From: Escherichia phage IME11
Sequence record: NC_019423.1
DNA length: 64,000 nucleotides
Reading direction: 5' to 3' (one strand)
A model generated the notes under the pieces. The model ran no database searches, was not told where the DNA came from, and worked only from the letters and a program-made list of their open reading frames with translations. This document shows, in pieces, positions 38,517-64,000 of this stretch; position 1 is the stretch's first letter, and each line of letters opens with the position of its first letter. A program made the translations under genes and the position numbers.

Positions 38517-38541
38517 AATTGAAACCAAAAAAAGACCTCCC
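38517..38541 (-). terminator. rho-independent terminator
   Basis: GACCTCC-cgga-GGAGGTC with 7-nt A-run on plus (T-run on minus). Confidence 0.55.
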
Positions 38542-38557
38542 GGAGGAGGTCTTAGGT

Positions 38558-38797
38558 TTACTTACTATTTTCTTCAATGAAGCGTCTCATACGTTCCTTT
38601 GCTTCATCATGTTCACGAATTGCTTCATAATCACGAGCAAAGTAGTAAATGCACCACAAACCAATTTCACTTACAAAGAGCAGAATGCTGGCTCGAATGA
38701 ACTGCATATCTGTTTCTAATACAAAGGCTACTTTGTATGCGAAGATTAGTGTGAGTAAGGCACTAGTTAGCATTGTGTACAGAGCTAGTTTTTTCAT
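38558..38797 (-). CDS. small membrane protein
   Basis: 79 aa with two predicted hydrophobic helices. Confidence 0.45.
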   Translation of the reverse strand: MKKLALYTMLTSALLTLIFAYKVAFVLETDMQFIRASILLFVSEIGLWCIYYFARDYEAIREHDEAKERMRRFIEENSK

Positions 38798-39738
38798 TCA
38801 GTAATAGTCTCACCGGGGATTAACTTACGGAATTGGATAAAGTGAAGCAGGTTACCTGAATACAGATTCCCTTCTTTATCCATGGATGTAACACCTTGTT
38901 CCCAGGTAACTGGGTTCATGTTATTCACGTACTTCTCACCAAGGTTCATAGGCGTAGCTTGATGTTCCGTTGGAGAAGCATGAATAGGTTGGTTTTCCAC
39001 TAACTTAGCGAACAAGCCGAGGTCTTCTTCGATAGTAGAAGGGCGTCCTTCAAAGTTGTTATAGGAAGCTCGTGCACAACGTGCAGCACTCACTTTGAGA
39101 AGTAATCCATACATTTCTGCAATACTTGGTTCATCGCGTGTAACTCGATTACGTTTGCAGAAATTATAAGCCCCAACACGGTCACTATGAGTAATATATG
39201 GCAGATGCCAATGTCCATGCGATAGTGTTTTTGGTGAACTCTCTTCTTGTGCCTTACGCATTGCTTGAGCCAGTTCACGAATTTCTGGTTGTGCATCTTT
39301 GTGGTCACGCAGTCCATAGAAGTTAGCCCAGCTTGTTGAAGTTACCACTACACGGATATGTGTGAATGGTTCCAGAATACGGTTAACAATCTGCTTATGT
39401 ACTTGCCCACGACGCAACATTTCAGCATAGGTGGCAACACTGGATGCAGCCTGTTCCCAGATAAAAATTGCATCACTGCGTTGGTCTTCTGATAGCTCTT
39501 CAAATGCTTGCATACCTTTCTGGTTCTTACCCCAGTGACTTGGCATCACTGGTTCATTACGAACTTGTTCGATGAACTTAGCAGTGGGGATAGCACGACT
39601 ACTTGAAGCATTACGGTTGAATACACGGTGGGTCATAAACTCACTGTGAATGAATCGGGGATAAACCAATTCAAAGGTTGTGATACGAGTTCCTGTTTCT
39701 GGATGAACGGAATCTGCAATTACTGATGCCTTAATCAT
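38794..39738 (-). CDS. thyX: ThyX-like flavin-dependent thymidylate synthase (putative, motif variant)
   Basis: 314 aa; segment FMTHRVFNRNASSSRAIP resembles the ThyX RHR-x7-S signature but with THR in place of RHR. Confidence 0.45.
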   Translation of the reverse strand: MIKASVIADSVHPETGTRITTFELVYPRFIHSEFMTHRVFNRNASSSRAIPTAKFIEQVRNEPVMPSHWGKNQKGMQAFEELSEDQRSDAIFIWEQAASSVATYAEMLRRGQVHKQIVNRILEPFTHIRVVVTSTSWANFYGLRDHKDAQPEIRELAQAMRKAQEESSPKTLSHGHWHLPYITHSDRVGAYNFCKRNRVTRDEPSIAEMYGLLLKVSAARCARASYNNFEGRPSTIEEDLGLFAKLVENQPIHASPTEHQATPMNLGEKYVNNMNPVTWEQGVTSMDKEGNLYSGNLLHFIQFRKLIPGETITE

Positions 39739-40181
39739 TAGAATGACCTTAGATAGTTGGTGATACCACTTCTCGTCTCTGTGATTCTCTTAACCTGAAC
39801 GTATACCAGCTTAAACTCACTACGAGGTAGTTCTTGTAATACTGCTACACCTTCAGTAAGGGCCACAGAACACGCTACAGCGGTTTCTTCTTTAAAGGAG
39901 TACAAGTCTTCATACATGAGGGCTTCATACTCTTTACGGAGCATACAGAGAGCAACTCTTGCCTTATCACTTACTTCTTGTGAACCAGCAGACATAGCTA
40001 AGCTGTATATGATAAAGACTTGTTCAAAAACAAAGTCCAGTAATCTATCAGGGGTATTAGTACCCATGAATAATTTTGTTGTATAGGAACGAGCTTTACG
40101 GTTGAGTTCATACTCATCCTCTATGCCTTTATTATAAAGAACAGGATTTCGTTCCCTTTTTCTTAGGAATGGGATACGCAT
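39738..40181 (-). CDS. hypothetical protein
   Basis: 147-aa ORF with ATGA coupling. Confidence 0.45.
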   Translation of the reverse strand: MRIPFLRKRERNPVLYNKGIEDEYELNRKARSYTTKLFMGTNTPDRLLDFVFEQVFIIYSLAMSAGSQEVSDKARVALCMLRKEYEALMYEDLYSFKEETAVACSVALTEGVAVLQELPRSEFKLVYVQVKRITETRSGITNYLRSF

Positions 40182-40567
40182 TAGTATTTACTACCTCTTC
40201 TATACCAGGGGTAGTGGTGAGTAGTACTCTTACCCTTGAACAAGTCACGAGTAATGGGATTCTTTCGTAACTGCTCCAGGTATAGGTACATGTGACCTTC
40301 TCCTGGATATGCCCAGAACTTATCTATGATATGGTCTACCTTAGATTTCAGATGCGGTTCTGGGGGAATGTATGAGGTGGTATTAAAAGGTCTTCCAGTA
40401 GTCCATCCTTTCTGAACAAGAACCTGCATTGTTGTATAAAGATCTAATTCACTTTCATTCTCTACTTGGTCATGAATAGTTTTACCCAAAGTAAGCATTG
40501 CAGTTTGTTCCAGCTTACTTAAGTCCAGCCCATACAAGATAGACTTACCATTTCGTCTGTTTGACAT
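40181..40567 (-). CDS. hypothetical protein
   Basis: 128-aa ORF. Confidence 0.45.
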   Translation of the reverse strand: MSNRRNGKSILYGLDLSKLEQTAMLTLGKTIHDQVENESELDLYTTMQVLVQKGWTTGRPFNTTSYIPPEPHLKSKVDHIIDKFWAYPGEGHMYLYLEQLRKNPITRDLFKGKSTTHHYPWYRRGSKY

Positions 40568-40583
40568 ACGAGTACCTGTAATT

Positions 40584-40609
40584 AAAAAAGCCCACGGGTT
40601 ATGTGGGCT
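40584..40609 (-). terminator. rho-independent terminator
   Basis: AGCCCAC-gggttat-GTGGGCT with A-run on plus. Confidence 0.55.
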
Positions 40610-40682
40610 TGGATTAGGAGAAGGATAAGCAATGAGCTGGAAGCAACTTCCAGAAGTACCCTCTTAGGGATACTTCGGTTAG

Positions 40683-40925
40683 TTACTCTGCTTTACTGCC
40701 ACCATTGGTTTGAACAACAGTTACATTTGTAACCTGGTTCTGACCTTTGTTGGACAGTGCCCAAATAAGTGCTACTACCCAGAAGACTAAAGACCAGCCT
40801 AATACGATATTAAGCACACCAATGCCCCACTTAGAGGCATGGCCTCGTGTAAAAGCGATGATAGTAGGGATAAGGTATACAGCTAATACAAATAACAGAA
40901 CAAGGATTGCTGCTAAAGATTCCAT
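40683..40925 (-). CDS. superinfection immunity (Imm)-like membrane protein
   Basis: ATG at 40925 with AGGAA RBS (track start 40961 is GTG); two TM helices; YLIPTIIAFTRGH...NIVLGWSLVFWVVALIWAL resembles the Imm family. Confidence 0.5.
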   Translation of the reverse strand: MESLAAILVLLFVLAVYLIPTIIAFTRGHASKWGIGVLNIVLGWSLVFWVVALIWALSNKGQNQVTNVTVVQTNGGSKAE

Positions 40926-40998
40926 GATGGTTCCTATGTAGGGTTGAGTTAGTTTCTTCACAAATAGCCCAACTATGCTGGGCTATTTAGGCAGCTAC

Positions 40999-41208
40999 TT
41001 ACTCAGAGTCTTTGCTTGCAGGTGTAAGAGCTTTCTTCAGGTAATTGCGTACTGAACGATAGGTTTCTTTGGTTTCTATATAGTTATTATCTACAAATAT
41101 GACGCGTGCATGGTCAGACTGTGGAATCTGTTCTACTGCAATTACATTTGCAGCATTAATGGTTAAGCGTACATCTGAGGTTGCATGAGTTACTTGAAAT
41201 ACTGACAT
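40999..41208 (-). CDS. hypothetical protein
   Basis: 69-aa ORF. Confidence 0.4.
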   Translation of the reverse strand: MSVFQVTHATSDVRLTINAANVIAVEQIPQSDHARVIFVDNNYIETKETYRSVRNYLKKALTPASKDSE

Positions 41209-41217
41209 GAGTTTTCC

Positions 41218-41724
41218 TTATTTACTGCTTCTTGCAGCTACTGGTTTGTTTTCCTGGTTCTGATACTTGCCATTGTAATTAGCAGGTTCCTGAACCAGAT
41301 GAAATAATACTTGAGCTATCCCAGAACCAGCCGGGATATGCAGTTTTTTACGACCATGATAGACCAATTCGAGGGTAAGATACCCTTTCCATCCTGGTTC
41401 GATTACTGTATTAAATACGGATAATGCACGTCTTGCCCATGTAGACTTGTCGTGAACGATAGCCACACAGGATGGTGACATGTTGAACTTCTCAATTGCT
41501 GAAGCCAATGCGAATTTACCGAGATGGCGTGATACTTGATCTCCATCAACGACCTTCACCATTGGAATCAACCCAAATAAGCAATAGAAGGTAATATCTT
41601 GTTTGATGCGAATATCATAACCAGCTTCACCTAATCCATAGCTTACACCATGTTCGGATACCTTACGGTCTGGTACATCCAGCAACTGAGATGAACGATA
41701 TAGAGAATTACCATTAACAACCAT
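41218..41724 (-). CDS. dcd: dCTP deaminase (dUTPase superfamily)
   Basis: 168 aa; VSYGLGEAGYDIRI, VIEPGWKGYLTLEL and IPAGSGIAQVLFH fit Dcd-family motifs. Confidence 0.65.
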   Translation of the reverse strand: MVVNGNSLYRSSQLLDVPDRKVSEHGVSYGLGEAGYDIRIKQDITFYCLFGLIPMVKVVDGDQVSRHLGKFALASAIEKFNMSPSCVAIVHDKSTWARRALSVFNTVIEPGWKGYLTLELVYHGRKKLHIPAGSGIAQVLFHLVQEPANYNGKYQNQENKPVAARSSK

Positions 41725-42899
41725 TATTTCATTCCTTTAGGGATATGAACTACCTCCCCAAAAGGTACGGTAGCATTGGGATTATTCAGAACACACCAGA
41801 TGATAGGGATATCAAATGGTAATTCTTCCATTGGACGAACATACATATCAGAGAATATGATTGCAGCGGTTGGCTTATTCTTAATAATCCAATCTCGTAC
41901 TGGTTCAAGGTTTGTACCACCACGGCCTGTAATCTTAATCTCTTCGAAAGTATCTTCTTCAGTGATGTCTATTTCTTCCTGAATAATATCGTCGAAGGTA
42001 ATTAAGGACATCTTCTTAGGATTAAACTGGCTCTTAACATAGGCAACCTCTGAGTTAAAACGCAGAGAGTCAGCACTACTAATAGAACCAGATACATCCT
42101 CAAAGTAGGCTAAGTGTCGTAAGCGTCCTTCATCATCTTCCAGGGAAGGTAGATAAATGTCAAAGAAACGACGGTTAGGTCTGGCCCACGTATAATGTGT
42201 GTCATCAATGTCGGTAAAGAAGTTCATCAGAACTTCCTGCCAGGGAACCACTGGTTTAAGGAATTGGGTAATAACCTCTTCCATGCGACCAGCACCTTTA
42301 CCGGGCATTGTTCCACCAGCCATCTTCTGGCTCTGCATTGCACGTACTACGTTGTTGACAACAGCACCCTGGGACTGCCCCGAAGAGGGAGCTTTCATGT
42401 CGCCAGCAAGACCTGCTCCAGCACCCCCAGACGGCTTCTGCCTTTTCTGAGGGTTCTTCATCAGGTCATCGTAGATGTCTTCTTCGACCCATCCTTTATA
42501 TTGAGGGTCTTTGCAAATACCTTTATCAATGCCAGTGAACTTATAACCATCTTCCTCTAACTGAAGGTTAATGAAGTGATCACATGCCTGGTTCCAGACT
42601 TCCGGGTCACGGCTTCCACAACGGATGCCATGTAGATATGCTACATGCCAGAGTTCGTGCATTAACACTGTTTCCCTTGCATCTGGGCACATCCAGATAA
42701 AGAAATCTGGGTTGAAATGGAGTTCTATCCCATCAGTACATGCAGTGGGACAATCCTCACGTTTCCATGAGAACTTAAGACTACACAGCAATGAACCAAA
42801 AAACGCTGCACTGCGTCCTAGGAAAGCGTTGGCCTGAATACGGTCATACTCACGCAAGAGTTGTTCATCACTAAGTGTGTGCTGAGGTATCTGGTTCAT
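41724..42899 (-). CDS. VWA-domain protein with N-terminal HExxH metallopeptidase-like domain (DUF2201-type)
   Basis: ATG at 42899 lies 8 nt after the AAA gene stop (track ORF extends to 42983). HExxH in VLMHELWHVAYLHG; MIDAS-like DxSGS in YFEDVSGSIS. Confidence 0.6.
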   Translation of the reverse strand: MNQIPQHTLSDEQLLREYDRIQANAFLGRSAAFFGSLLCSLKFSWKREDCPTACTDGIELHFNPDFFIWMCPDARETVLMHELWHVAYLHGIRCGSRDPEVWNQACDHFINLQLEEDGYKFTGIDKGICKDPQYKGWVEEDIYDDLMKNPQKRQKPSGGAGAGLAGDMKAPSSGQSQGAVVNNVVRAMQSQKMAGGTMPGKGAGRMEEVITQFLKPVVPWQEVLMNFFTDIDDTHYTWARPNRRFFDIYLPSLEDDEGRLRHLAYFEDVSGSISSADSLRFNSEVAYVKSQFNPKKMSLITFDDIIQEEIDITEEDTFEEIKITGRGGTNLEPVRDWIIKNKPTAAIIFSDMYVRPMEELPFDIPIIWCVLNNPNATVPFGEVVHIPKGMK

Positions 42900-42906
42900 A
42901 GTGTGA

Positions 42907-43959
42907 TTACCCGTGAATGTAACGAGAGATATTAGCAGCAGCCTTACGCCATTCAGGAGTAGCCTGAAGATCTGGTAATGCATTGCCTACTGTACGGAAG
43001 TACAGAATCTTATGGGTGAATGTTTTAAAGCGTTCAATATACTGAAGAACATCAGCAAAGTTTTCTTCAGTAGTTTTGTTAGCCAGATGGTTAACGGTAG
43101 CCCAGCACAGGTTGTTATCTTCCGGTAGTGCACAGCCCATAGGGTCTTTAACTACCTTCTCAATCGTAATCATACGATTGTACACCTGAGTAAACTGAAC
43201 AAATTCTGTAGCTTTACCAGCAGTAACGTGACCTGCATAGTAGATAGAATCTTCATCAGGCAGAGCACCTTCTGGCAGGTTCTTGAGGTCTTTGTTAACA
43301 AAGTCCCAAGTACGAGGACAACAGAACGTTTTGTTTTTATGAGCAGGGTCGAAGTCATGTAGATAACCAGGGTTAGCATGTAAGAATGCAACCAGACGTT
43401 CATCCCATTGCTGAGGAACCATTACGTCTTCAACAAAGATGTCGAAGTTAAGTTCCATTTCAAAGTGAACCACACGAGACTGCATTGCAGTACCTAGTGG
43501 GTTAACAATGGCACGGTCGGTAGCTTTGTTACCAGCACATACAATCATCACATTAGGATGAAGTTTTTTCTGACCTGTCATACGGTCCAGAATCAGTTTG
43601 TATGCAGCAGCTACTACTTCTTTCTTAGCTGAGTTGAACTCATCAAGGAATAAGAGCCAGCCATTATACCCTTCTGGTAATTCATCCCCCTCAATAGGAA
43701 ATAAGTCAGCGAATGGGATAAATTCTGCACGGTCACCATTACGAAATGGTAAGCCAGAAAGGTCTTCCGGGGCAGAAGTAGACAGACGGTGGTCTATCAG
43801 CTTCATACCAAATTCTTCTGCAACAGAACGAATAATTGCAGATTTACCCATGCCCGGTGATGAAGTCAGGAACGGTACGTTACCTGCTCTAAGGGCACGG
43901 ATAATAAAGTTACGAGCTTGACGTGTATTACATACGGTCAAGGAGTCAATGCTTGCCAT
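42907..43959 (-). CDS. MoxR-like AAA+ ATPase
   Basis: 350 aa; Walker A SPGMGKSA, Walker B LLFLDEFN, sensor-like VCAGN; immediately upstream of the VWA partner. Confidence 0.7.
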   Translation of the reverse strand: MASIDSLTVCNTRQARNFIIRALRAGNVPFLTSSPGMGKSAIIRSVAEEFGMKLIDHRLSTSAPEDLSGLPFRNGDRAEFIPFADLFPIEGDELPEGYNGWLLFLDEFNSAKKEVVAAAYKLILDRMTGQKKLHPNVMIVCAGNKATDRAIVNPLGTAMQSRVVHFEMELNFDIFVEDVMVPQQWDERLVAFLHANPGYLHDFDPAHKNKTFCCPRTWDFVNKDLKNLPEGALPDEDSIYYAGHVTAGKATEFVQFTQVYNRMITIEKVVKDPMGCALPEDNNLCWATVNHLANKTTEENFADVLQYIERFKTFTHKILYFRTVGNALPDLQATPEWRKAAANISRYIHG

Positions 43960-43993
43960 TTACTTACTCTCCTAAAGTTAATGGAATTACTAA

Positions 43994-44323
43994 TTAAGAT
44001 TTGGTGCAGGGATATGCCTTGTGTACTGAGTACACAACAATTTGAGATGTATTCTTCAATTTGAGGATTGCAGAGTCATAAATAACTACTTTGGCAATCT
44101 TAGGCAGAATGTCTGAATACTTAATACCATCTGGAACACAGTTATCAGTGTTCTCGATGTAAGCAATCATACTGCCCATGAAGAATCCTTGTCCGAATGC
44201 ATCACGAGTGTCATCCAGGTAAGCCTGAGCACCTTCCAGAATTGGTTCTGGTTCAATTGCTTGTGCATTTGGGGCCAAAGCTATCAGTGCAGCTACGGTA
44301 AAACCTTTAAGTAAAGTTTTCAT
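43994..44323 (-). CDS. secreted/periplasmic small protein
   Basis: 109 aa; signal-peptide-like N-terminus MKTLLKGFTVAALIALAPNAQA. Confidence 0.5.
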   Translation of the reverse strand: MKTLLKGFTVAALIALAPNAQAIEPEPILEGAQAYLDDTRDAFGQGFFMGSMIAYIENTDNCVPDGIKYSDILPKIAKVVIYDSAILKLKNTSQIVVYSVHKAYPCTKS

Positions 44324-44509
44324 TTAGTTACCTTTCATTTCATTGAGATGAAGTACACCGATAGGGGTTAATGACCACCCAAGACCAGCATTGAACTGTA
44401 CTAAGCCCAGCTTCTTAAGAGACTGTGCGGTTTTGTTATTACGGTTGCTGGTGGCAGAGCCACCTTGAACCATACGAAGGAAGATTGCTTGGGACTGAGT
44501 TAATTTCAA
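44324..44509 (-). CDS. hypothetical small protein
   Basis: 61-aa ORF, tightly packed. Confidence 0.35.
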   Translation of the reverse strand: MKLTQSQAIFLRMVQGGSATSNRNNKTAQSLKKLGLVQFNAGLGWSLTPIGVLHLNEMKGN

Positions 44510-44715
44510 AGGTAATATCCTTCCAGGTTTATTGGTGTTACGAATGTACTTGCTGATAGACAGAAAGACTTACCAGTCTCTACTGCAACAGCAGCAGGTT
44601 TACCATCAGGTAGGTGAATCTTTAGACATACCGTCTGGTTATAAATAAAACCATTAGCAGGCTGCACATCACCAAAAGTTACCTCATTGTTCTCAGAACG
44701 ATTTGTTACTTTCAT
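44506..44715 (-). CDS. hypothetical small protein
   Basis: 69-aa ORF with ATGA coupling. Confidence 0.35.
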   Translation of the reverse strand: MKVTNRSENNEVTFGDVQPANGFIYNQTVCLKIHLPDGKPAAVAVETGKSFCLSASTFVTPINLEGYYL

Positions 44716-44933
44716 TTCTTCTCCGGTACGAACTGCATTACACAGTTTTGGTTACGAGGGATATTCAATTCACATTCATGCTTGAGGGTTTGTGTTACAG
44801 AGTTTGGAGTAGAACCAAAGTAGGTATTAGAAATAGCTACAAATCCTGCACCTATTAAACCACCCAGTAAGAATGAGAAAAATGCAATCTCTTTATACAT
44901 TTCCTGGCTCCAGATGTAGAAAACCCCAGTCAA
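44712..44933 (-). CDS. small single-TM membrane protein
   Basis: 73 aa with one hydrophobic helix (IAFFSFLLGGLIGAGFVAI). Confidence 0.4.
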   Translation of the reverse strand: MTGVFYIWSQEMYKEIAFFSFLLGGLIGAGFVAISNTYFGSTPNSVTQTLKHECELNIPRNQNCVMQFVPEKK

Positions 44934-44961
44934 TGCTGGGGTTTATCTATCAGTTTATGCT

Positions 44962-45222
44962 TTATAGACCGTGTGGTCGGCATAGGCTGCCCGAACCAAA
45001 GGAACGGTGTCCAAGTCGGCCCAGTATTAGATTGCTTACTTCAGCAGCAGCACGACTGAATGCTTTAAAATCAAAGGTTACAATACCGAAGAGTGGGGCT
45101 GCGATAGCAGCTGCCATGACTGGCGTCAGGTCAATCAATGACATACCCAAGATTAAGTGGGCAGCGTAGGCAATAAGGCCCATTACAGCACCACAACCGT
45201 ATCCAATAGCAATTTTACGCAT
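44962..45222 (-). CDS. small membrane protein
   Basis: 86 aa with two hydrophobic segments. Confidence 0.4.
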   Translation of the reverse strand: MRKIAIGYGCGAVMGLIAYAAHLILGMSLIDLTPVMAAAIAAPLFGIVTFDFKAFSRAAAEVSNLILGRLGHRSFGSGSLCRPHGL

Positions 45223-45282
45223 AGTTACCTTCTTAGTTAGTAGGTTGATTTACATATTTATATAACAGACAAACAATAGTCA

Positions 45283-45311
45283 AAAAAAGACCTCCCTTCA
45301 ATAGGGAGGTC
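45283..45311 (-). terminator. rho-independent terminator
   Basis: GACCTCCC-ttcaata-GGGAGGTC with A-run on plus. Confidence 0.55.
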
Positions 45312-45356
45312 AAACTTGAGGGTTTCATTTCAGGGTTTATAACCCCAAGAAAGCAA

Positions 45357-45671
45357 TCATACTTGCTTGGTTAGATAATTCAGATACTCTTCCGGGTCAT
45401 CAAAGAAATCATCTTCAGTTTCAATATACCAATCCACCCAACGGTCTTCTAAACCCATCTCCACTAGTTCTTGATCAGAGATAGTCTCATCCCACATCTC
45501 AATACCGTTAGCATTAGCATAATTGCCTTTGACATTGTTCTCATACTGAAATAGGTCATAGTCTGCTAATGCATTCTTAATCTTAACAGCTTCCTGAAGA
45601 CTATCTGTCTCTACATGAAATGCCTTCATTGGCACTTGAGGAATGTGCCATACACGCAATTTTTGTGTCAT
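45357..45671 (-). CDS. acidic hypothetical protein
   Basis: 104 aa, Asp/Glu-rich. Confidence 0.45.
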   Translation of the reverse strand: MTQKLRVWHIPQVPMKAFHVETDSLQEAVKIKNALADYDLFQYENNVKGNYANANGIEMWDETISDQELVEMGLEDRWVDWYIETEDDFFDDPEEYLNYLTKQV

Positions 45672-45737
45672 TTTTACTCTCCTATAAATACAAGAAAGCC
45701 CTCACAAGGAGGGCTATAACCACGAAAAGAAATACAC

Positions 45738-46571
45738 TTACTCTGCAACAGTAATAGCGATGGTTACATCGACAGTACCATTGGTAACTACTACAGAAGT
45801 AGCTTCACCAGCAGCCACTGGTTTAACTGTCAGCACATTACCAGCAAGGGTAGCTGTAGCACGAGCAGAATCCGGAGCAGTTTTGATAGTCAGCGTACCA
45901 GCAGAAGAACCAACAGGCATAGCAGCAATTGTTACGGTCTTACCGGCAGCGGTATCAGCAGCAACAGACAGAGCCAGTGAATCAGGAGTAGCTACCAGTG
46001 AGCTTGCTTCGTAGTAGCCTACAGCCAGCAATGAGGTATCTTCTACAGTGGTTCCATTAGCATCAGTAACAATTACTTTATAAGTACCAGCAGAAGCAGC
46101 TGTTACGTCATTAAGAGTCAATGTTGCAGTAATAGCAGATGCGTTCTCACCTGAATCAATATCAGCGAATACTGCACCAGCGGTATCAGCTTTAAATTGC
46201 CATTTATAAGTAAATGGTGCTTTACCACCTGCTACATCAACATGCCAGTTAATATCTTCACCTTCGATAGCGGAGATTACACGAGGCAGTTTGGTAGCAA
46301 TAGTCAGTCGTGGAGTTGCTTTCATATCAATAGAGATAGACTGCATATCCACGATGTTGTTAGGCCAGAAACCTGCTTCAGCAGGGTTTTTAGCAGAGCG
46401 TTTATACAGCAGATCACGTACACCGTGATAGATAACTAAGCTATCAGGGTAAGTGGCATCTGGGTGTACAAAGGTTCCTACTTCTACTGAACCACCGGGG
46501 ATAGAACCACCGGCATCCAGTACAGTTGCGACATTAGTGGTTTTGTTAAAACCTACTTTCAAAGTTGGCAT
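45738..46571 (-). CDS. Ig-like (Big-type) repeat protein
   Basis: ATG at 46571 with GAGGA RBS; Thr/Ala/Val-rich beta-strand repeats (TYKVIVTDANGTTVEDTSLLAVG, VTNGTVDVTIAITVAE) typical of bacterial Ig-like domains. Confidence 0.5.
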   Translation of the reverse strand: MPTLKVGFNKTTNVATVLDAGGSIPGGSVEVGTFVHPDATYPDSLVIYHGVRDLLYKRSAKNPAEAGFWPNNIVDMQSISIDMKATPRLTIATKLPRVISAIEGEDINWHVDVAGGKAPFTYKWQFKADTAGAVFADIDSGENASAITATLTLNDVTAASAGTYKVIVTDANGTTVEDTSLLAVGYYEASSLVATPDSLALSVAADTAAGKTVTIAAMPVGSSAGTLTIKTAPDSARATATLAGNVLTVKPVAAGEATSVVVTNGTVDVTIAITVAE

Positions 46572-46620
46572 ATCAATTTCCTCATAAGTAAATAGCAGGG
46601 TTAGTATACACGATGGGTAA

Positions 46621-46645
46621 AAATAAAAACCCACCTAGTGGTGGG
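46621..46645 (-). terminator. rho-independent terminator
   Basis: CCCACC-tagt-GGTGGG with A-run on plus. Confidence 0.55.
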
Positions 46646-46861
46646 TTAGTTGATTACACAGTAGAGAGCAAAAGCCATCCATCCTGCCATTACAAAGCAG
46701 CCAAATGAATATGCCCCATAGTAGCAATAGGCAAACTTAGACTTGTGGGCACGAACTATCGTAGCCAGAACCAGTACAGATAAAACTATCAGTATTAGCT
46801 GAAAGATTACTTCAAAATTGATTAGCATAGTTGTTACCTCCAAGCAAAAAATAAGCCTCAC
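46646..46861 (-). CDS. small membrane protein
   Basis: 71 aa with two hydrophobic helices. Confidence 0.4.
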   Translation of the reverse strand: MRLIFCLEVTTMLINFEVIFQLILIVLSVLVLATIVRAHKSKFAYCYYGAYSFGCFVMAGWMAFALYCVIN

Positions 46862-47012: not shown

Positions 47013-48230
47013 TTAACTAAGGGCATAATCAGTCTCCAGAATGTCCTGCCAGAGGCTGTCATCCAGCTTACCAGCAGAGAACTCTTGCCCCAATACCTGA
47101 GACAGGATGAAGCCCAGCAGGTCACTCTTAGCGATGTCAGACAGAATCTGATTGTACTGACGACGCAGGTCATTACCGTAGTTAGGATGGCAACGGAAGC
47201 AGTCATGCACAGTCATTACAGGGAATGGTTTCTTAGGCAGAGTGTCAATCATATCTGCTACTACCTGACGGTCTACATAAGCAATAGTACATGGGTCAAG
47301 ATAATCAATGATTGATAATGATAAGAAGCCAGATTTCTCATAGTGGCTCCATAGCTCTTGTACCTTCTCCAGATTACCTACAATCTCCCCATATTCTGAT
47401 GGACCTTCATCACAGAGTTCTCTCACAGCTTCCACTAAGTCACGGTCGAAGTTACAACGACGCAGCATCTCACGTACCACCATCCCATCAATTGAGTGAG
47501 TGATGTTAGCAGAGAGCATACGAGTCTTCTCTTCAGTACCCTGAACCATACGAGTGATGTCGAATGGCTTACCTAAGAAGTTAACAGTCTGTACTTCAGG
47601 AACCATTACCTTAATGACAGCGTGGAAGTTGTCAGGCAGTACCCATATATAACGGTTGGCATCCGGGTTACCACATTGCAGTAAGAACTTGTTCAGTGCC
47701 CAAGGACCACTTGCAACAGTTTCCATTACATTCTCAAAAGTCTTGAGACGAATACCTTCACCGAATACCTCTTTGGGCTTGGCTTCTGAGCCGTAGAATG
47801 CAGTCATAACTGCTTGCTTGGTGTCACTACGTTTAATACGGGATGCTTCACCAAGGATGTCCAGCATCTTGTGATAGATGACTGTATAAGCATCACGACG
47901 TAATGGCTTACCATTCTCTCCCATGTAGTTAACTACGTTACACAGTTCAGCAGCAGAACGGTCACCAGTCAGGCAGGCCAGTAACTGCAAGCCTGATGAT
48001 GTAGCATCCAGAGCTACGGCATAACCGATAGGCTTACCTGCTTTCATATCTTTCCATGCGTTTACACCAGCAAAGAACAGTGCAGATTCTTCAGCCTCAT
48101 CTACCAGATTAAGCAGGTTAGTTTCGTTCTCATCGAACCAAGCAATACGCTCATCCCATGTCTTCTTATCTAAGCCATAGTTATTGGCGATATCTACTTT
48201 CAGGTATTCACGAGCGGTTAACAGTTGCAT
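47013..48230 (-). CDS. T7-like RNA polymerase catalytic subunit (N4 RNAP II large-subunit-like)
   Basis: 405 aa; motif A AVALDATSSGLQ, motif B TKQAVMTAFYGSE, motif C MTVHDCF. Confidence 0.75.
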   Translation of the reverse strand: MQLLTAREYLKVDIANNYGLDKKTWDERIAWFDENETNLLNLVDEAEESALFFAGVNAWKDMKAGKPIGYAVALDATSSGLQLLACLTGDRSAAELCNVVNYMGENGKPLRRDAYTVIYHKMLDILGEASRIKRSDTKQAVMTAFYGSEAKPKEVFGEGIRLKTFENVMETVASGPWALNKFLLQCGNPDANRYIWVLPDNFHAVIKVMVPEVQTVNFLGKPFDITRMVQGTEEKTRMLSANITHSIDGMVVREMLRRCNFDRDLVEAVRELCDEGPSEYGEIVGNLEKVQELWSHYEKSGFLSLSIIDYLDPCTIAYVDRQVVADMIDTLPKKPFPVMTVHDCFRCHPNYGNDLRRQYNQILSDIAKSDLLGFILSQVLGQEFSAGKLDDSLWQDILETDYALS

Positions 48231-59545: not shown

Positions 59546-60253
59546 ATGATTAAACTAACCGAGCTGTATAAGAGTCTGGCTCTAAGTGTTCTGAATAACA
59601 CCAGTGTTGTTACTGATGATAAGAAGGACATTGAGACAGATAAGAAAGAATACATCCTCGAATTTATTAATGAGGGGCTTACCCGTTTACACGGCAGGTT
59701 CCCACTTAAAACTGAGAATATATTCGTAGAAATGAGGGAGGGTAGAACAGAGTACCCATTGCTCAAGCGATACTCTTTTATGGGGTTTGACCCTGAGCTA
59801 GCCCAGTACCCTTTCATAATGGATTCAGTAACTAACCCATTTGAGGAGAATGTGATAAAGATACTGATGGTGTATGACTCTTGGGGGGAACGTCGAGGAC
59901 TTAACGACAGCCACAATCCACATGGGTTATTCACCCCAAGACCAGACACGTTACAGTGTATTCGTCCTCGTCATTGTGAAGTACTTACGGTAACATATCA
60001 GGCGAAGCATCCAACTCTTACTGTAGAAGGTGAGAACCAGGAAGTAGACCTGCCTGATTCCTTACTGCCTGCATTAAAGTACTGGGTAGCATATAGCTAT
60101 TACACTGGCCTCAACACTGCTGAAAGTACAAGTAAGGCAGCAGAGTATTTGCAAATGTACGAGTCAATCTGTGGAGAGGTTAAGGACTATGACCTTGGTA
60201 GCAGCAGTGAGTCAAACACCAATACATTATTTGAAAGAAGAGGGTGGATATGA
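59546..60253 (+). CDS. hypothetical structural-module protein
   Basis: 235-aa ORF with AGGAA RBS between terminase and tail fibre. Confidence 0.5.
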   Translation: MIKLTELYKSLALSVLNNTSVVTDDKKDIETDKKEYILEFINEGLTRLHGRFPLKTENIFVEMREGRTEYPLLKRYSFMGFDPELAQYPFIMDSVTNPFEENVIKILMVYDSWGERRGLNDSHNPHGLFTPRPDTLQCIRPRHCEVLTVTYQAKHPTLTVEGENQEVDLPDSLLPALKYWVAYSYYTGLNTAESTSKAAEYLQMYESICGEVKDYDLGSSSESNTNTLFERRGWI

Positions 60254-62940
60254 ATTCTCATAATCCGTTTAACACAGGTGGTAGTGGGTGCACTAATGAT
60301 TTTCGTTCTGCTGACCAGTTAGTAGACCGAATTATTGGTGACGCCTACCATGTAGTAAAAGAGGTATACCTTGCATTAGGTAACCTTACCTACATCTATA
60401 ACTACCTACAGAAGTACGGCCTAATTATTACTGTAGACAGTGAAGATGCAATCAAGGATATCCCCTTATCAATTGGTAAGTTTGCACGTGTCTACAACAA
60501 ATCAGAAACGGCTGGGTACTACTTCACTGACTACCTGTATGTAGCAGATGATACTACAGGCATCCCATCGAATGACCCAACTGCAACTGGTTCATGGGTA
60601 AGTACGAAAGCTACCGGCTCTAATGCATCTTTCGTGCGTATCTGGAAGTATCGGGCTGAGGCCGATGGCGTTACTTCGATAGAGCTACCCACGGATATTC
60701 CAATTGTTGGAGTGCAGACCATTTACGTGGAGGGTGTAAGACAGGACATCAATGAAGGCTTCTCCTACAATGAGGGCACAGCTACAATCACATTAGCTGA
60801 CTCTCTAGAAGCTGGTAATCTGGTTACCGTTATTATAGGTATAACTGACCCAGATTTGGATGTGGATGTTTTCGCCATACTCAAGAACAGCGATGGGGCT
60901 TCCAACATTGGAACCAGCGATGGTAGTACTGTTCAACAAGAATTAGACACTGCACTAAAGAGCTTCATTAGTTTGGAAAAAGGTGGGGTTCTTACCAAAC
61001 GTAACCAATTAGTCTATGACGGAGAGTCGTTTTATAATTGGAGAGGGGACTTACCTAAGACTATCCCAGCAGGTAGCACTATTAGTAGCTTGGGGGGAGT
61101 TGGTAAGAAAACCTGGGGCGTCATCTCAATGACTGAAGCTTCTCAGTTGCTCTGGAAGCGTAATAAATTAATCACTGCAATTACCGGTGTAGGTGGGTTG
61201 TTGGACTCCCAATGGGTAAGTATTTGGGAGTTCGCCAATGAAATTGTAGACATGCCCACCAGCAATCCCCAAACTTGGGACTGGACACCAGCATTTGTAG
61301 CAGCCCGTGACTACATCGAGTCTTATGTGCAGCAGGTTGCAGTTAACTCTACCATGTGGGGAACCAAGACACTCTTCGTGCCTTCTGGTATTTACTTGCT
61401 TAAAGAAGAGGTACTGTTTACTCAGTACGCTAACAGCAGAGGCTCACTCTCTACAGGGTATCGTATCGTCGGTGACGGTATGACATCCACCGTCATTCAG
61501 CCTGTAACGGACGGACAAACTGCCTTCAGAGCTACTAACTGTAAGTTCAATCTACAGGATATTGGTTTCCGTGCTGGGGCTAAGTACAACAAGGGTGTGG
61601 TGATGGGTTCCACTGATAAGTGGGAACCAGTTTTCCACTCTAACTGGGACCGTGTTGGATTCTCTGGTTTTGCTCGTGGTGTTGTAGGCAACCTGGTATT
61701 TGACAGTACTTTTATTGACGTCTTTGTTCAAGAAATTACAGAGATGCAGGACATTAGCGAGTACTCTGCTGGGGTAGACTTCCCTGCCTATATGGGTCCA
61801 GCTAACAATAGCAAGGATGCTGTAAACACAGGGGACTGCTCCAACAATATTACGTTTATTCGTCTTACTGTAGAAACTGCTAAGACTAACAACGCAATCA
61901 TGATTAACTTACGAGGCAGGAACAACTCGTATGCTAACCATGCATTTAACTTCTTTGCTGGTCACGTAGAGACACACAACCGTTACGCTAAAACTCTGTC
62001 AGTACAGAACAGTATTAACATTAACGCATTTGGTGTGATTTTTAGCCAGAACGGTGATGAGGATACGCCTCCTACTCGTGTAATGTATTTCAACAACGCT
62101 TCAGACATTTGCCTGCAAGCTTGTCGTATCATTACTAATAACGTGGTTGCTGCCTATGCAGATACTGATACTAAGATGATTGCAGTAGAGGGCAACTCTG
62201 GTAACGTATCGTTCCCTCACACTTACGTAAGGACCCCTTACTACAACCTCAATACGTACAATGCTGGTATAGCGTATTGTATTGATAGCTCTAATGCTAC
62301 CCGTGGTGTGCGTTCTTATGACGATACTGGTGTCATCATTAACCAGTACTCCAACAAGAAGGTTGCCAGCAGACGTAGACTGACCAGCATGAATAGTATT
62401 GGCCTCTCCTTTGAAGAAAGGGTAGAGGCAGATGGTTCTTTAGTATGGGCTTACAGTACATCACGTGATGATACAACAGTTCCTACTGACAGAATGTCTC
62501 TTACTTCGGCTGGTGCACTGCAAACCACAGGTAACCTACAGATTGGTGCAATGTCTTCTTCTGGGGTCACCCGTGGAATTGACTTTATCAACAACGGTGA
62601 CAAGAGTACCATCACTGCACGTATTCAGGCAGATAATGTAGGGCGACTGTACTTTGGTTCCTATGGCTTAACCCAAAACTGGGTAATGGGTAGTAATACA
62701 TTTAACCCAACTACTGATAACACCCATAGCATGGGTACAGCAGCAAATAGAATCAATGCAGTTTACGCTGTAGTATTCCGCTTCTCTGCAACAGTAGGTA
62801 TCTTTTCTGGTTCTGGTAGCCCAGAAGGCATAGTAACTGCTGGAGCCGGTTCTATGTACTTAAGGACAGATGGTGGTGCTAATGCATCAATGTATGTTAA
62901 AGAAACCGGTTCAGGTAACGTAGGGTGGGTAGCCAAATGA
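60250..62940 (+). CDS. tail fibre / tailspike protein
   Basis: ~897 aa (track start 60244 is GTG); beta-rich Ser/Thr/Asn/Gly composition; C-terminal GSPEGIVTAGAGSMYLRTDGGANASMYVKETGSGNVGWVAK resembles conserved podophage tail-fibre C-termini. Confidence 0.55.
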   Translation: MNSHNPFNTGGSGCTNDFRSADQLVDRIIGDAYHVVKEVYLALGNLTYIYNYLQKYGLIITVDSEDAIKDIPLSIGKFARVYNKSETAGYYFTDYLYVADDTTGIPSNDPTATGSWVSTKATGSNASFVRIWKYRAEADGVTSIELPTDIPIVGVQTIYVEGVRQDINEGFSYNEGTATITLADSLEAGNLVTVIIGITDPDLDVDVFAILKNSDGASNIGTSDGSTVQQELDTALKSFISLEKGGVLTKRNQLVYDGESFYNWRGDLPKTIPAGSTISSLGGVGKKTWGVISMTEASQLLWKRNKLITAITGVGGLLDSQWVSIWEFANEIVDMPTSNPQTWDWTPAFVAARDYIESYVQQVAVNSTMWGTKTLFVPSGIYLLKEEVLFTQYANSRGSLSTGYRIVGDGMTSTVIQPVTDGQTAFRATNCKFNLQDIGFRAGAKYNKGVVMGSTDKWEPVFHSNWDRVGFSGFARGVVGNLVFDSTFIDVFVQEITEMQDISEYSAGVDFPAYMGPANNSKDAVNTGDCSNNITFIRLTVETAKTNNAIMINLRGRNNSYANHAFNFFAGHVETHNRYAKTLSVQNSININAFGVIFSQNGDEDTPPTRVMYFNNASDICLQACRIITNNVVAAYADTDTKMIAVEGNSGNVSFPHTYVRTPYYNLNTYNAGIAYCIDSSNATRGVRSYDDTGVIINQYSNKKVASRRRLTSMNSIGLSFEERVEADGSLVWAYSTSRDDTTVPTDRMSLTSAGALQTTGNLQIGAMSSSGVTRGIDFINNGDKSTITARIQADNVGRLYFGSYGLTQNWVMGSNTFNPTTDNTHSMGTAANRINAVYAVVFRFSATVGIFSGSGSPEGIVTAGAGSMYLRTDGGANASMYVKETGSGNVGWVAK

Positions 62941-63134
62941 GTAAGCAAACTGTTATCAGAGATGCAGCGGGTAATGTGATTAACATCGGTCCTTGGGATT
63001 TTGTTAAAACTGTAGAGACTGATTTAAGCACAGGTGAAGACTATCTGGTCATAAATAATCCTATGCCAGATGGTTGTTATGAGAGTACTGCTGAGATTAC
63101 AACTCTACCTGATGGTGGATTATCAGCTGAGTAG
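62937..63134 (+). CDS. hypothetical small protein
   Basis: 65-aa ORF; ATG overlaps the tail-fibre stop (ATGA). Confidence 0.35.
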   Translation: MSKQTVIRDAAGNVINIGPWDFVKTVETDLSTGEDYLVINNPMPDGCYESTAEITTLPDGGLSAE

Positions 63135-63190
63135 TAACTAAGGCTAGGGGGGTGTTAGCCCCCTTAAAACTACAACATGAGGAATGACCC

Positions 63191-64000
63191 ATGAATAAGG
63201 TGTTTACCCAACCCACAGGCCCAGTGGCTAAACAGGTTAATAAGCAAACTATAGCCCGATTGCTGGGTATAAAGACAGCACAAGTAGGTTATATAAATAG
63301 GCTCTCCCCTATTGATTCATATACTGTACTTTTTGATGAGTCCTCTCAGTTGCCCTTTTACAGAGGCTCAGCATTAGGTACTCCAACCTCATGGGCTTAT
63401 AACGCGGCCCTAGACGTGTTGGACATAACAACCACATCTGGGACTTATTCCCTGGTTCTAGCTAATAAAGTTAAAGAGCTAGAGAACAATCTAAAATCAG
63501 AAGATACAGGCAAAGGGGCTGATACTGTTAAAGTACGTAAAGGTAGAGCAAGCATTACTCCTGCTCGTACTGTGGCAGAGTTGTTATTAGATGGTATGGC
63601 TGGATTGCGTAAAAATTTCGGGGCAATTGGTAATGGTATTGCTGATGATACCAATGCTATCAATGATATGTGGGAATGCATGTATGATGCATCCTACAAA
63701 AGATTTGGAGCACTCACTGATGAAGCAGCTATCAGTTTTATGCTTCAAAAAGGCCCAGCTTGTTTAGTTGAAAATGGGGTGTATGTTTACTCTGGCCCCG
63801 GTTTAACTTTTCCAAGTGGTGCTGCATTTGTAATGAATATCCATGGTGAAAGTGCTCTTTCGTCTAAGTTCCTTATTACTTCAGATGCTTATCTTTTTGA
63901 TTTGGATAATAACCCAGTACATAGTTATTTAGGTAAATTAACTATTCATGGGGGGCGAGGGGCTGTACGAATGAAATCCGATGCCCGAACTACGGCGGGT
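63191..64000 (+). CDS. tailspike / depolymerase with pectate-lyase-like beta-helix N-terminal motif (3'-truncated by window end)
   Basis: ATG with GAGGAA RBS; open frame to window end (270 codons, absent from ORF track); motif GAIGNGIADDTNAINDMW resembles the G-D-G-x-T-D-D-T signature of Pectate_lyase_3-type tailspikes. Confidence 0.55.
   Translation, partial: MNKVFTQPTGPVAKQVNKQTIARLLGIKTAQVGYINRLSPIDSYTVLFDESSQLPFYRGSALGTPTSWAYNAALDVLDITTTSGTYSLVLANKVKELENNLKSEDTGKGADTVKVRKGRASITPARTVAELLLDGMAGLRKNFGAIGNGIADDTNAINDMWECMYDASYKRFGALTDEAAISFMLQKGPACLVENGVYVYSGPGLTFPSGAAFVMNIHGESALSSKFLITSDAYLFDLDNNPVHSYLGKLTIHGGRGAVRMKSDARTTAG

Follow-up and report, generated by a model that had tools for sequence, protein, structure and literature searches.

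Whether a run of small genes in the middle of an N4-like coliphage genome serves a single purpose, and what that purpose might be, is the question raised by positions 40683-45222 of Escherichia phage IME11 (record NC_019423.1). These genes belong to the middle-gene region and are encoded on the minus strand; the whole 64,000-nucleotide stretch that was analysed is referred to here as the window. A first-pass annotation had described them as a cluster of small membrane and secreted proteins, and had suggested a superinfection-exclusion or envelope-remodelling set that might overlap with the lysis genes. The reading favoured here, which has about as much chance of being wrong as of being right, is that the region consists of accessory middle-gene cassettes, most of which would act on the envelope of the infected cell without forming one machine; the protection functions assigned to them are inferred from sequence, predicted structures and analogy. 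Most of the region is ordinary, its small open reading frames (ORFs) being typical accessory genes, and the moderately interesting lead is an exported protein of 109 amino acids (aa) with similarity to the Rap1a/Tai4a proteins.

A megablast search with positions 40000-46000 recovered 57 phage records, nearly all of them Escherichia/Shigella phages of the genus Gamaleyavirus, at 90-94% identity. The window is approximately 92% identical to Bp4, and the group comprises the G7C/Bp4-like, N4-like coliphages within the Schitoviridae. Each ORF was compared with up to 13 distinct orthologues, and the ratio of nonsynonymous to synonymous change (pN/pS) lies between 0.10 and 0.24 for all real ORFs, consistent with purifying selection. 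Therefore, with the exception of a 31-aa ORF (vide infra), the small ORFs are considered to be real genes.

The first-pass annotation had assigned a signal peptide to the 109-aa protein (pN/pS 0.22), and this assignment holds. The N-terminus reads as a typical Sec signal peptide, with an n-region (MKTLLK), an h-region (GFTVAALIALAP) and a c-region (NAQA) followed by IEP, and thus with a predicted AQA/I cleavage site; a comparable N-terminus is present in all full-length aligned relatives. The mature part, of about 87 residues, is hydrophilic and helical, and contains no transmembrane (TM) segment. It matches the Pfam Rap1a family (PF18602) below threshold (E=0.003, 18.5 bits, against a gathering score of 27.7). 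When nine diverse members of the family were searched singly, all nine matched the same profile at 14.4-24.0 bits (best E=5.5e-5), in the same profile region, and each of the nine alignments stops exactly at the conserved C-terminal cysteine.

This cysteine is one of a pair. Rap1a itself has a 26-residue signal peptide and five helices, and forms a stable dimer whose fold depends critically on a disulfide between Cys78, in the alpha2-alpha3 loop, and the C-terminal Cys122, 44 residues away (PMC3852654). In the phage protein, Cys62 lies in the loop between helices 42-58 and 69-87 and Cys106 lies at the C-terminus, again 44 residues apart. Both are invariant in the alignment of the protein with its relatives; in a second alignment, built around a relative only 28% identical, the first cysteine is invariant and the second is lost only in the truncated P0079. 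An AlphaFold2 model of the 109-aa protein (predicted local distance difference test score, pLDDT, 77) shows a helical bundle following the signal peptide, with the compact five-helix arrangement of Rap1a. A second model, from the 28%-identical relative (pLDDT 78.8), yielded the same two top structural matches, with scores of 7.4 and 7.2 and the next match at 4.3. In both structure searches Rap1a and Tai4 clearly outscore YmgD and HdeA, and in Foldseek the best TM-score was obtained with Tae4-Tai4 (0.58/0.63), at E-values above 1. On the basis of sequence profiles and models, the 109-aa protein is best described as a branch of the Rap1a/Tai4a fold that is divergent and confined to phages.

The phage-only distribution was consistent across three kinds of search. 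A word-indexed search of 5.8 billion proteins returned relatives that were all at least 84% identical; an exhaustive hidden Markov model (HMM) search of 1.84 billion representatives found eight proteins, to which a later profile search added four. Beyond the close cluster, relatives are 24-39% identical to the 109-aa protein. None of these searches reached a bacterial protein, and the five contexts looked up among the eight exhaustive HMM matches include none that is bacterial. The genomic contexts of seven relatives are phage-like, and all of the long contigs are N4-like phages, with the gene placed in the same middle-gene module; the relative P0016 is available only on fragments of 1-2 kb, where it adjoins an AAA ATPase gene. 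In four loci of a second N4-like lineage (L010, L024, L025 and L026), the Rap1a-like gene lies upstream of a DUF7740 gene and a gene for a Band_7/SPFH membrane protein in every case, and in three of the four it follows a gene for a 250-aa AAA protein (PF00004/PF07724). The similarity to Rap1a is so far known only through automatic labels, namely 'tai4 protein' in PV933157 and 'RAP1A' in a metagenomic record, and no paper on Rap1a/Tai4 proteins carried by phages came up in the literature searches.

A further feature of this gene is that it exists in two forms. Gamaleyavirus copies of the protein fall into two groups, with about 90% and about 35% identity to the window copy, while the flanking AAA and 61-aa genes are 91-98% identical across both allele classes. 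In comparisons with PGN829.1, AN24P2 and K57alpha1.2, nucleotide identity of at least 90% ends at position 44017 and returns at 44309, both inside the ORF, so that the first five and last eight codons are common to both alleles. A swap confined to the ORF is what would be expected of a protein that determines specificity.

Taken together, these properties suggest a mechanism in which the Rap1a-like protein would be periplasmic, and probably a disulfide-stabilised dimer, and would bind and sterically block an incoming peptidoglycan-cleaving enzyme, with the two divergent alleles recognising different enzymes. Because the only documented targets of the Rap1a fold are Tae4-type (NlpC/P60-like) amidases that neighbouring bacteria inject via type VI secretion systems (T6SS), enzymes of this type are ranked first as the likeliest target. 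It is accordingly proposed, tentatively and as a minority expectation, that lytic N4-like phages export a T6SS-immunity fold as 'orphan immunity' against incoming amidases, delivered by T6SS-bearing neighbours or by rival phages, with the allele determining which attacker is blocked. The accessory genes as a whole would then keep the envelope intact until the late lysis genes of the phage itself act.

Another interpretation keeps the protein in the periplasm and gives it a host target: it may inhibit MepS or another NlpC/P60 endopeptidase, or serve as a chaperone resembling HdeA or YmgD, and thereby reshape or stabilise the wall. The constant position of the gene in the middle module, beside an AAA ATPase gene wherever a full-length context was examined, would suit such a role. 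However, YmgD and HdeA fall behind Rap1a and Tai4 as structural matches, the disulfide cysteines that are conserved are those specific to Rap1a, and a conserved host target is not an obvious driver of two alleles only about 35% identical. This interpretation is ranked third and is considered improbable.

Several points weigh against the proposal that the region encodes envelope-protecting cassettes, among them a Rap1a-like inhibitor. The Rap1a profile scores, at 14-24 bits, are all under the gathering score, the Foldseek E-values are above 1, and sequence searches of the PDB (phmmer and hmmsearch, with the 109-aa protein, P0016 and the profile of the first alignment) did not return Rap1a and gave no meaningful link to a solved Tai4; small helical bundles may also converge on one fold. 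None of the seven relatives' loci that were looked up has a Tae4-like effector or a T6SS gene nearby, and immunity to T6SS attack would be of only short benefit to a lytic phage. The elements of the region are non-contiguous and independently distributed, such that 'one set, one purpose' is an interpretation; the 62-aa and 86-aa proteins have no informative homologue, in that Pfam, PHROG and NCBIfam suggest no function for them; and any function of these genes in N4-like phages is a predicted one. Given the failed Pfam threshold and the lack of an effector neighbour, the 109-aa protein has not been filed as an ordinary member of the Rap1a family.

The second protein with a recognisable relative is encoded 3 kb from the remaining small genes, beyond the dCTP deaminase, VWA/DUF2201 and AAA ATPase genes. 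The first-pass annotation's identification of this 80-aa product as an Imm-like two-helix protein is well founded: it matches Imm_superinfect (PF14373) over the full 42-position profile with 60.9 bits (cutoff 27.9; E=1.1e-16), falls in the PHROG 1039 family ('immunity to superinfection'), and contains two hydrophobic 19-residue segments with Kyte-Doolittle (KD) values of 2.91 (residues 7-25) and 2.26 (residues 35-53). T4 Imm (from NC_000866) passes the same Pfam model (58.2 bits, E=7e-16) and aligns with the window protein by BLASTP at 28% identity over 61 residues (E=8e-10). A tblastn search recovered the Imm core from 675 phage records, among them those of T-even-like, Chi-like and Acinetobacter phages; N4 has no Imm gene in a comparison of gene content. 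An AGGA ribosome-binding site precedes the ATG at 40925, and pN/pS is 0.17. The sequence comparisons identify the protein as a true homologue of T4 Imm, and by analogy with T4 it would block the entry of a second phage's DNA at the inner membrane. Imm homologues have already been annotated in Gamaleyaviruses.

Next to Imm, at 40999-41208 on the minus strand, is a gene for a 69-aa soluble protein placed as N4 gp27/G7C gp27, and labelled 'flagellar and swarming motility protein' in one GenBank record. Among Gamaleyaviruses its product falls into identity classes of approximately 95-97%, 75-82% and 55-59%, and since its flanks are 92-98% identical it represents a second allele-replacement spot.

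The presence of Imm raises the possibility that the Rap1a-fold protein is a counterpart of T4 Spackle. Spackle is reportedly all-helical; the structure searches gave neither a fold match nor homology between it and the 109-aa protein. In T4, Imm is paired with Spackle, a small periplasmic blocker of the tail lysozyme gp5 (PMC7677548, PMC7650644), and an equivalent protein here would inhibit the wall-degrading enzyme of a superinfecting virion, giving two-layer exclusion together with Imm. Every Gamaleyavirus locus examined carries both Imm and an exported helical protein with an inhibitor fold, and the allelic dimorphism fits an arms race between phages. On the other hand, the N4 ejection proteins apparently include no peptidoglycan hydrolase, none being evident in the ejectosome (PMC13434306), which makes self-exclusion by this route unlikely and would require another type of phage as the target. 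A virion peptidoglycan hydrolase as self-target was also sought in the window and rejected, as Pfam and PHROG scans of the gp51-55 homologues, the virion RNA polymerase (vRNAP) and the tail proteins contained none, and PDB sequence matches were only to N4 gp53 and the '66 kDa protein'. Moreover, in one relative (L007) the Rap1a-like gene is present but Imm is not, and no Imm was seen in the stretches shown of the other N4-like lineage. The Spackle-like role is ranked second and is regarded as unlikely, less so than a host target.

The coordinates of these and the remaining features are collected below.

Table. Features of the small-gene region of the window and its immediate surroundings
Feature	Coordinates	Strand	Basis and remarks
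Intrinsic terminator just downstream of Imm	40588..40610	-	8-bp GC-rich stem, then T6
Imm, 80-aa two-TM inner-membrane protein, T4 Imm homologue (G7C gp27.1)	40683..40925	-	PF14373, PHROG 1039, BLASTP
Hairpin just upstream of Imm, 13-bp stem	40961..40989	-	RNA fold of enclosing 75 nt: -22.5 kcal/mol, z=-3.5
109-aa exported protein, predicted Rap1a/Tai4a fold (G7C gp17.3)	43994..44323	-	Signal peptide residues 1-22; invariant Cys62, Cys106
Allele-swap segment within the Rap1a-like ORF	44018..44308	-	Nucleotide comparison with PGN829.1, AN24P2, K57alpha1.2
61-aa soluble protein (G7C gp17.2), TTG start	44324..44509	-	Maximum KD over 19 residues 1.06; PHROG 7665, function unknown; pN/pS 0.24
69-aa soluble protein, patchy	44506..44715	-	Maximum KD over 19 residues 1.06; PHROG 18793; pN/pS 0.11
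62-aa single-TM protein	44712..44900	-	One TM, KD 2.28; PHROG 7508; pN/pS 0.10
Hairpin between the 86-aa and 62-aa genes	44921..44944	-	AAACCCCAG-CATTGA-CTGGGGTTT, read from sequence
86-aa two-TM hairpin protein, patchy	44962..45222	-	PHROG 26763; pN/pS 0.18; IME11_54 (100% identical)
Terminator between the gp17-like and 86-aa genes	45289..45311	-	9-bp stem then T7; sequence/fold
104-aa acidic cytoplasmic protein, P22 gp17 family, N4 gp18 homologue	45357..45671	-	PF17420, PHROG 1510
Terminator on the other side of the gp17-like gene	45697..45715	-	Terminator scan

The four genes between the Rap1a-like gene and the end of the region had been described as several membrane proteins of 60-90 aa. 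This is accurate for the 62-aa and 86-aa products, while the 61-aa and 69-aa products are soluble. None of the four has a Pfam match, and NCBIfam has no match for any small ORF of the region. The 61-aa gene is present in all Gamaleyavirus loci examined; its start codon (44507-44509) is TTG in the window and in Bp4, and ATG at the same codon in several relatives. Of 14 close relatives of the Gamaleyavirus type, seven lack the 69-aa gene, the edges of the indels coinciding with gene boundaries, and in Bp4 an extra gene for an 86-aa protein lies between the 69-aa and 62-aa genes.

The start of the 62-aa gene is placed at ATG 44900, which has a GGAG ribosome-binding site and agrees with the PHROG 7508 alignment, which begins at residue 12 of the longer ORF. 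The alternative TTG at 44933, which would give a 73-aa ORF, lies in the loop of a hairpin and was rejected. The 21 C-terminal residues of the protein, ECELNIPRNQ(N/S)CVMQFVPEKK, comprise a Cys-loop motif that is kept in a 52%-identical homologue with a diverged TM segment. The 86-aa protein is hydrophobic over residues 4-52, broken by D31/P34, and has a conserved basic C-terminal tail. Its homologues occur solely in contigs of about 72 kb, a size typical of N4-like phages, and the gene is found in four of 13 named Gamaleyavirus records. The 31-aa ORF at 45233-45328 was considered as a membrane peptide and rejected, as it spans a terminator, has no Shine-Dalgarno sequence, and has a pN/pS of 1.57 on six differences.

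Beyond the small genes, the 104-aa gp17-like protein, encoded just outside the region, scores well with PF17420 (E=3.1e-45, 152.8 bits against a cutoff of 25), is 64% identical to N4 gp18, has a pN/pS of 0.23 and is patchy among relatives. The P22 gp17 family is of the 'superinfection exclusion' type; a search of the literature for the function of P22 gene 17 found nothing usable. Two more small two-TM proteins flank the region, one similar to G7C gp16.1 (46646-46861, minus strand; PHROG 12530) and one of 79 aa (38558-38797, minus strand; PHROG 12633), and intrinsic terminators follow both genes (46628-46647 and 38532-38553). Small membrane proteins are thus scattered over the whole middle region.

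The arrangement of these genes is that of separable cassettes. On the minus strand between 38.4 and 47.1 kb there are 12 terminator-like hairpins, more than the 5.8+/-2.6 expected, and matches to sigma-70-type promoters between 38400 and 47100 are depleted (6 against 20.6+/-4.9 in shuffled sequences), which fits transcription by the phage's own RNA polymerases. The Imm, 86-aa and gp17-like genes are each bracketed by hairpins or terminators, with the terminator between the latter two shared. The 62-, 69-, 61- and 109-aa genes abut or overlap, and the last of these ends 34 nt upstream of the AAA gene. Like the 69-aa gene, the 86-aa and gp17-like genes are found in some relatives only, with indel edges at gene boundaries, and the cassettes appear to have been gained or lost gene by gene. 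At the equivalent position N4 encodes a membrane protein, gp19, and a lipoprotein, gp20.

Such an arrangement could also arise if unrelated small accessory genes, with no common function, had come to lie together by chance in a variable stretch. The term 'cluster' applies only loosely: three TM-like ORFs do lie inside, but Imm is 3 kb from the others, and of the eight small, genuine TM-like ORFs on the same strand between 17.6 and 56.7 kb the region holds only these three (binomial p ~0.06), a weak enrichment for 4.5 of 39 kb. Genes are gained and lost independently, terminators separate the cassettes, two members are soluble, and the 62-aa and 86-aa proteins belong to families of unknown function. 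Nevertheless, the Imm, Rap1a-like and gp17-like proteins all resemble families associated with conflicts at the envelope or across it, and N4 has envelope proteins at the same position, which leaves a purely accidental grouping somewhat less probable even than the host-target interpretation. The proposed superinfection-exclusion or envelope set therefore survives in part: homology in the Imm, Rap1a-fold and neighbouring gp17-type proteins points in that direction, but not to a single set, since the elements are distributed independently.

The suggestion that lysis genes overlap with the region was not upheld. In Bp4, orf15-18 are homologues of N4 gp63/62/61/60 and lie between the tailspike and portal genes, and N4 gp60-63 have been shown experimentally to be spanins, a signal-anchor-release (SAR) endolysin, a regulator and a pinholin (bioRxiv 10.1101/2025.11.12.688109). 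Bp4 orf15-18 have no tblastn match anywhere in the window. Of a genome of about 72 kb, the window covers a permuted and incomplete part that lacks the portal, lysis and some tail genes: at one end (positions 1-83) it has only the final 27 codons of the major capsid gene, and positions 60244-64000, at the other end, contain tail-fibre genes. Given these ends and the absence of a match, the lysis cassette is placed in the approximately 8.5 kb outside the window. That the small membrane proteins are themselves holins, antiholins or spanins is very improbable. The 86-aa protein has two TM segments and an N-in/C-in topology like that of class II holins, and the single-pass 62-aa protein is i-spanin-like; however, neither is matched by the Bp4 homologues of the characterised N4 lysis proteins, no endolysin lies near the small membrane genes, these genes are in the middle operon, and the 86-aa gene is absent from most relatives.

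The wider gene order on the minus strand runs from RNAP2 (47013-48230) and a Hoc-like decoration protein (45738-46634) down to ThyX (38794-39738). Within it, the listed VWA/DUF2201 ORF (41724-42983, minus strand; N4 gp25 homologue) and the AAA gene (42907-43959, minus strand) overlap by 77 nt. The probable real start is an in-frame ATG at 42902, giving about 392 aa, and the St11Ph5 gene encodes 391 aa. Both genes are intact in the window and are split or interrupted in Bp4, PD38 and ECBP1, in some of which HNH homing-endonuclease genes occupy the gap between them. The tail-fibre genes at the window end are 35-38% identical to their Bp4 counterparts.

The interest of the Rap1a-like gene lies in its conserved position in at least two N4-like lineages, its lack of an effector partner and its cassette-like allele replacement. 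If the exported protein does inhibit an incoming wall hydrolase, it would link superinfection biology with T6SS warfare, through a lytic phage that protects the envelope of its host; if orphan immunity is the correct explanation, it would represent a virus-encoded defence of the host against bacterial warfare during the lytic cycle. Gamaleyaviruses are also common therapeutic isolates, and exclusion genes affect interference between phages in therapy cocktails.

Comparison with known systems shows both likenesses and differences. Window Imm shares with T4 Imm a length of about 80 aa, two TM helices and a conserved 42-residue core, with both proteins above the Pfam threshold, but its carrier is a podovirus of the Schitoviridae, in which it forms a hairpin-bracketed cassette of the middle region and would have a predicted role in exclusion. 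T4 Spackle (gp61.3) is, like the 109-aa protein, a small exported phage protein, and as the partner of Imm it inhibits a periplasmic peptidoglycan hydrolase (PMC7677548); no fold match between the two was detected, and the target class would differ, being a lysozyme for Spackle and an NlpC/P60-type amidase for the Rap1a fold. The gp17-like protein resembles P22 gp17 (PF17420) with a family score well above the cutoff, and differs in that it stands outside the cluster as an acidic, cytoplasmic protein with a putative role in N4-like phages.

Phage 'morons' are accessory genes flanked by their own transcription signals. The window cassettes are similar to these in that they have hairpins or terminators at their borders, a patchy distribution among near-identical genomes and indels at gene edges; they differ in belonging to a strictly lytic phage in which sigma-70 sites are depleted. 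Finally, Rap1a (Serratia, PDB 3ZFI) and Tai4 (Agrobacterium, PDB 6IJE) share with the 109-aa protein a Sec signal peptide, a helical bundle of about 90 residues and a pair of cysteines that link the alpha2-alpha3 loop to the C-terminus, a bond that is predicted in the phage protein. In contrast to the Rap1a/Tai4a family (PF18602), the phage clade is sub-threshold in sequence and confined to N4-like phages, its carrier is lytic, its gene has no adjacent Tae4 effector or T6SS genes, and its two divergent alleles are swapped within the ORF.

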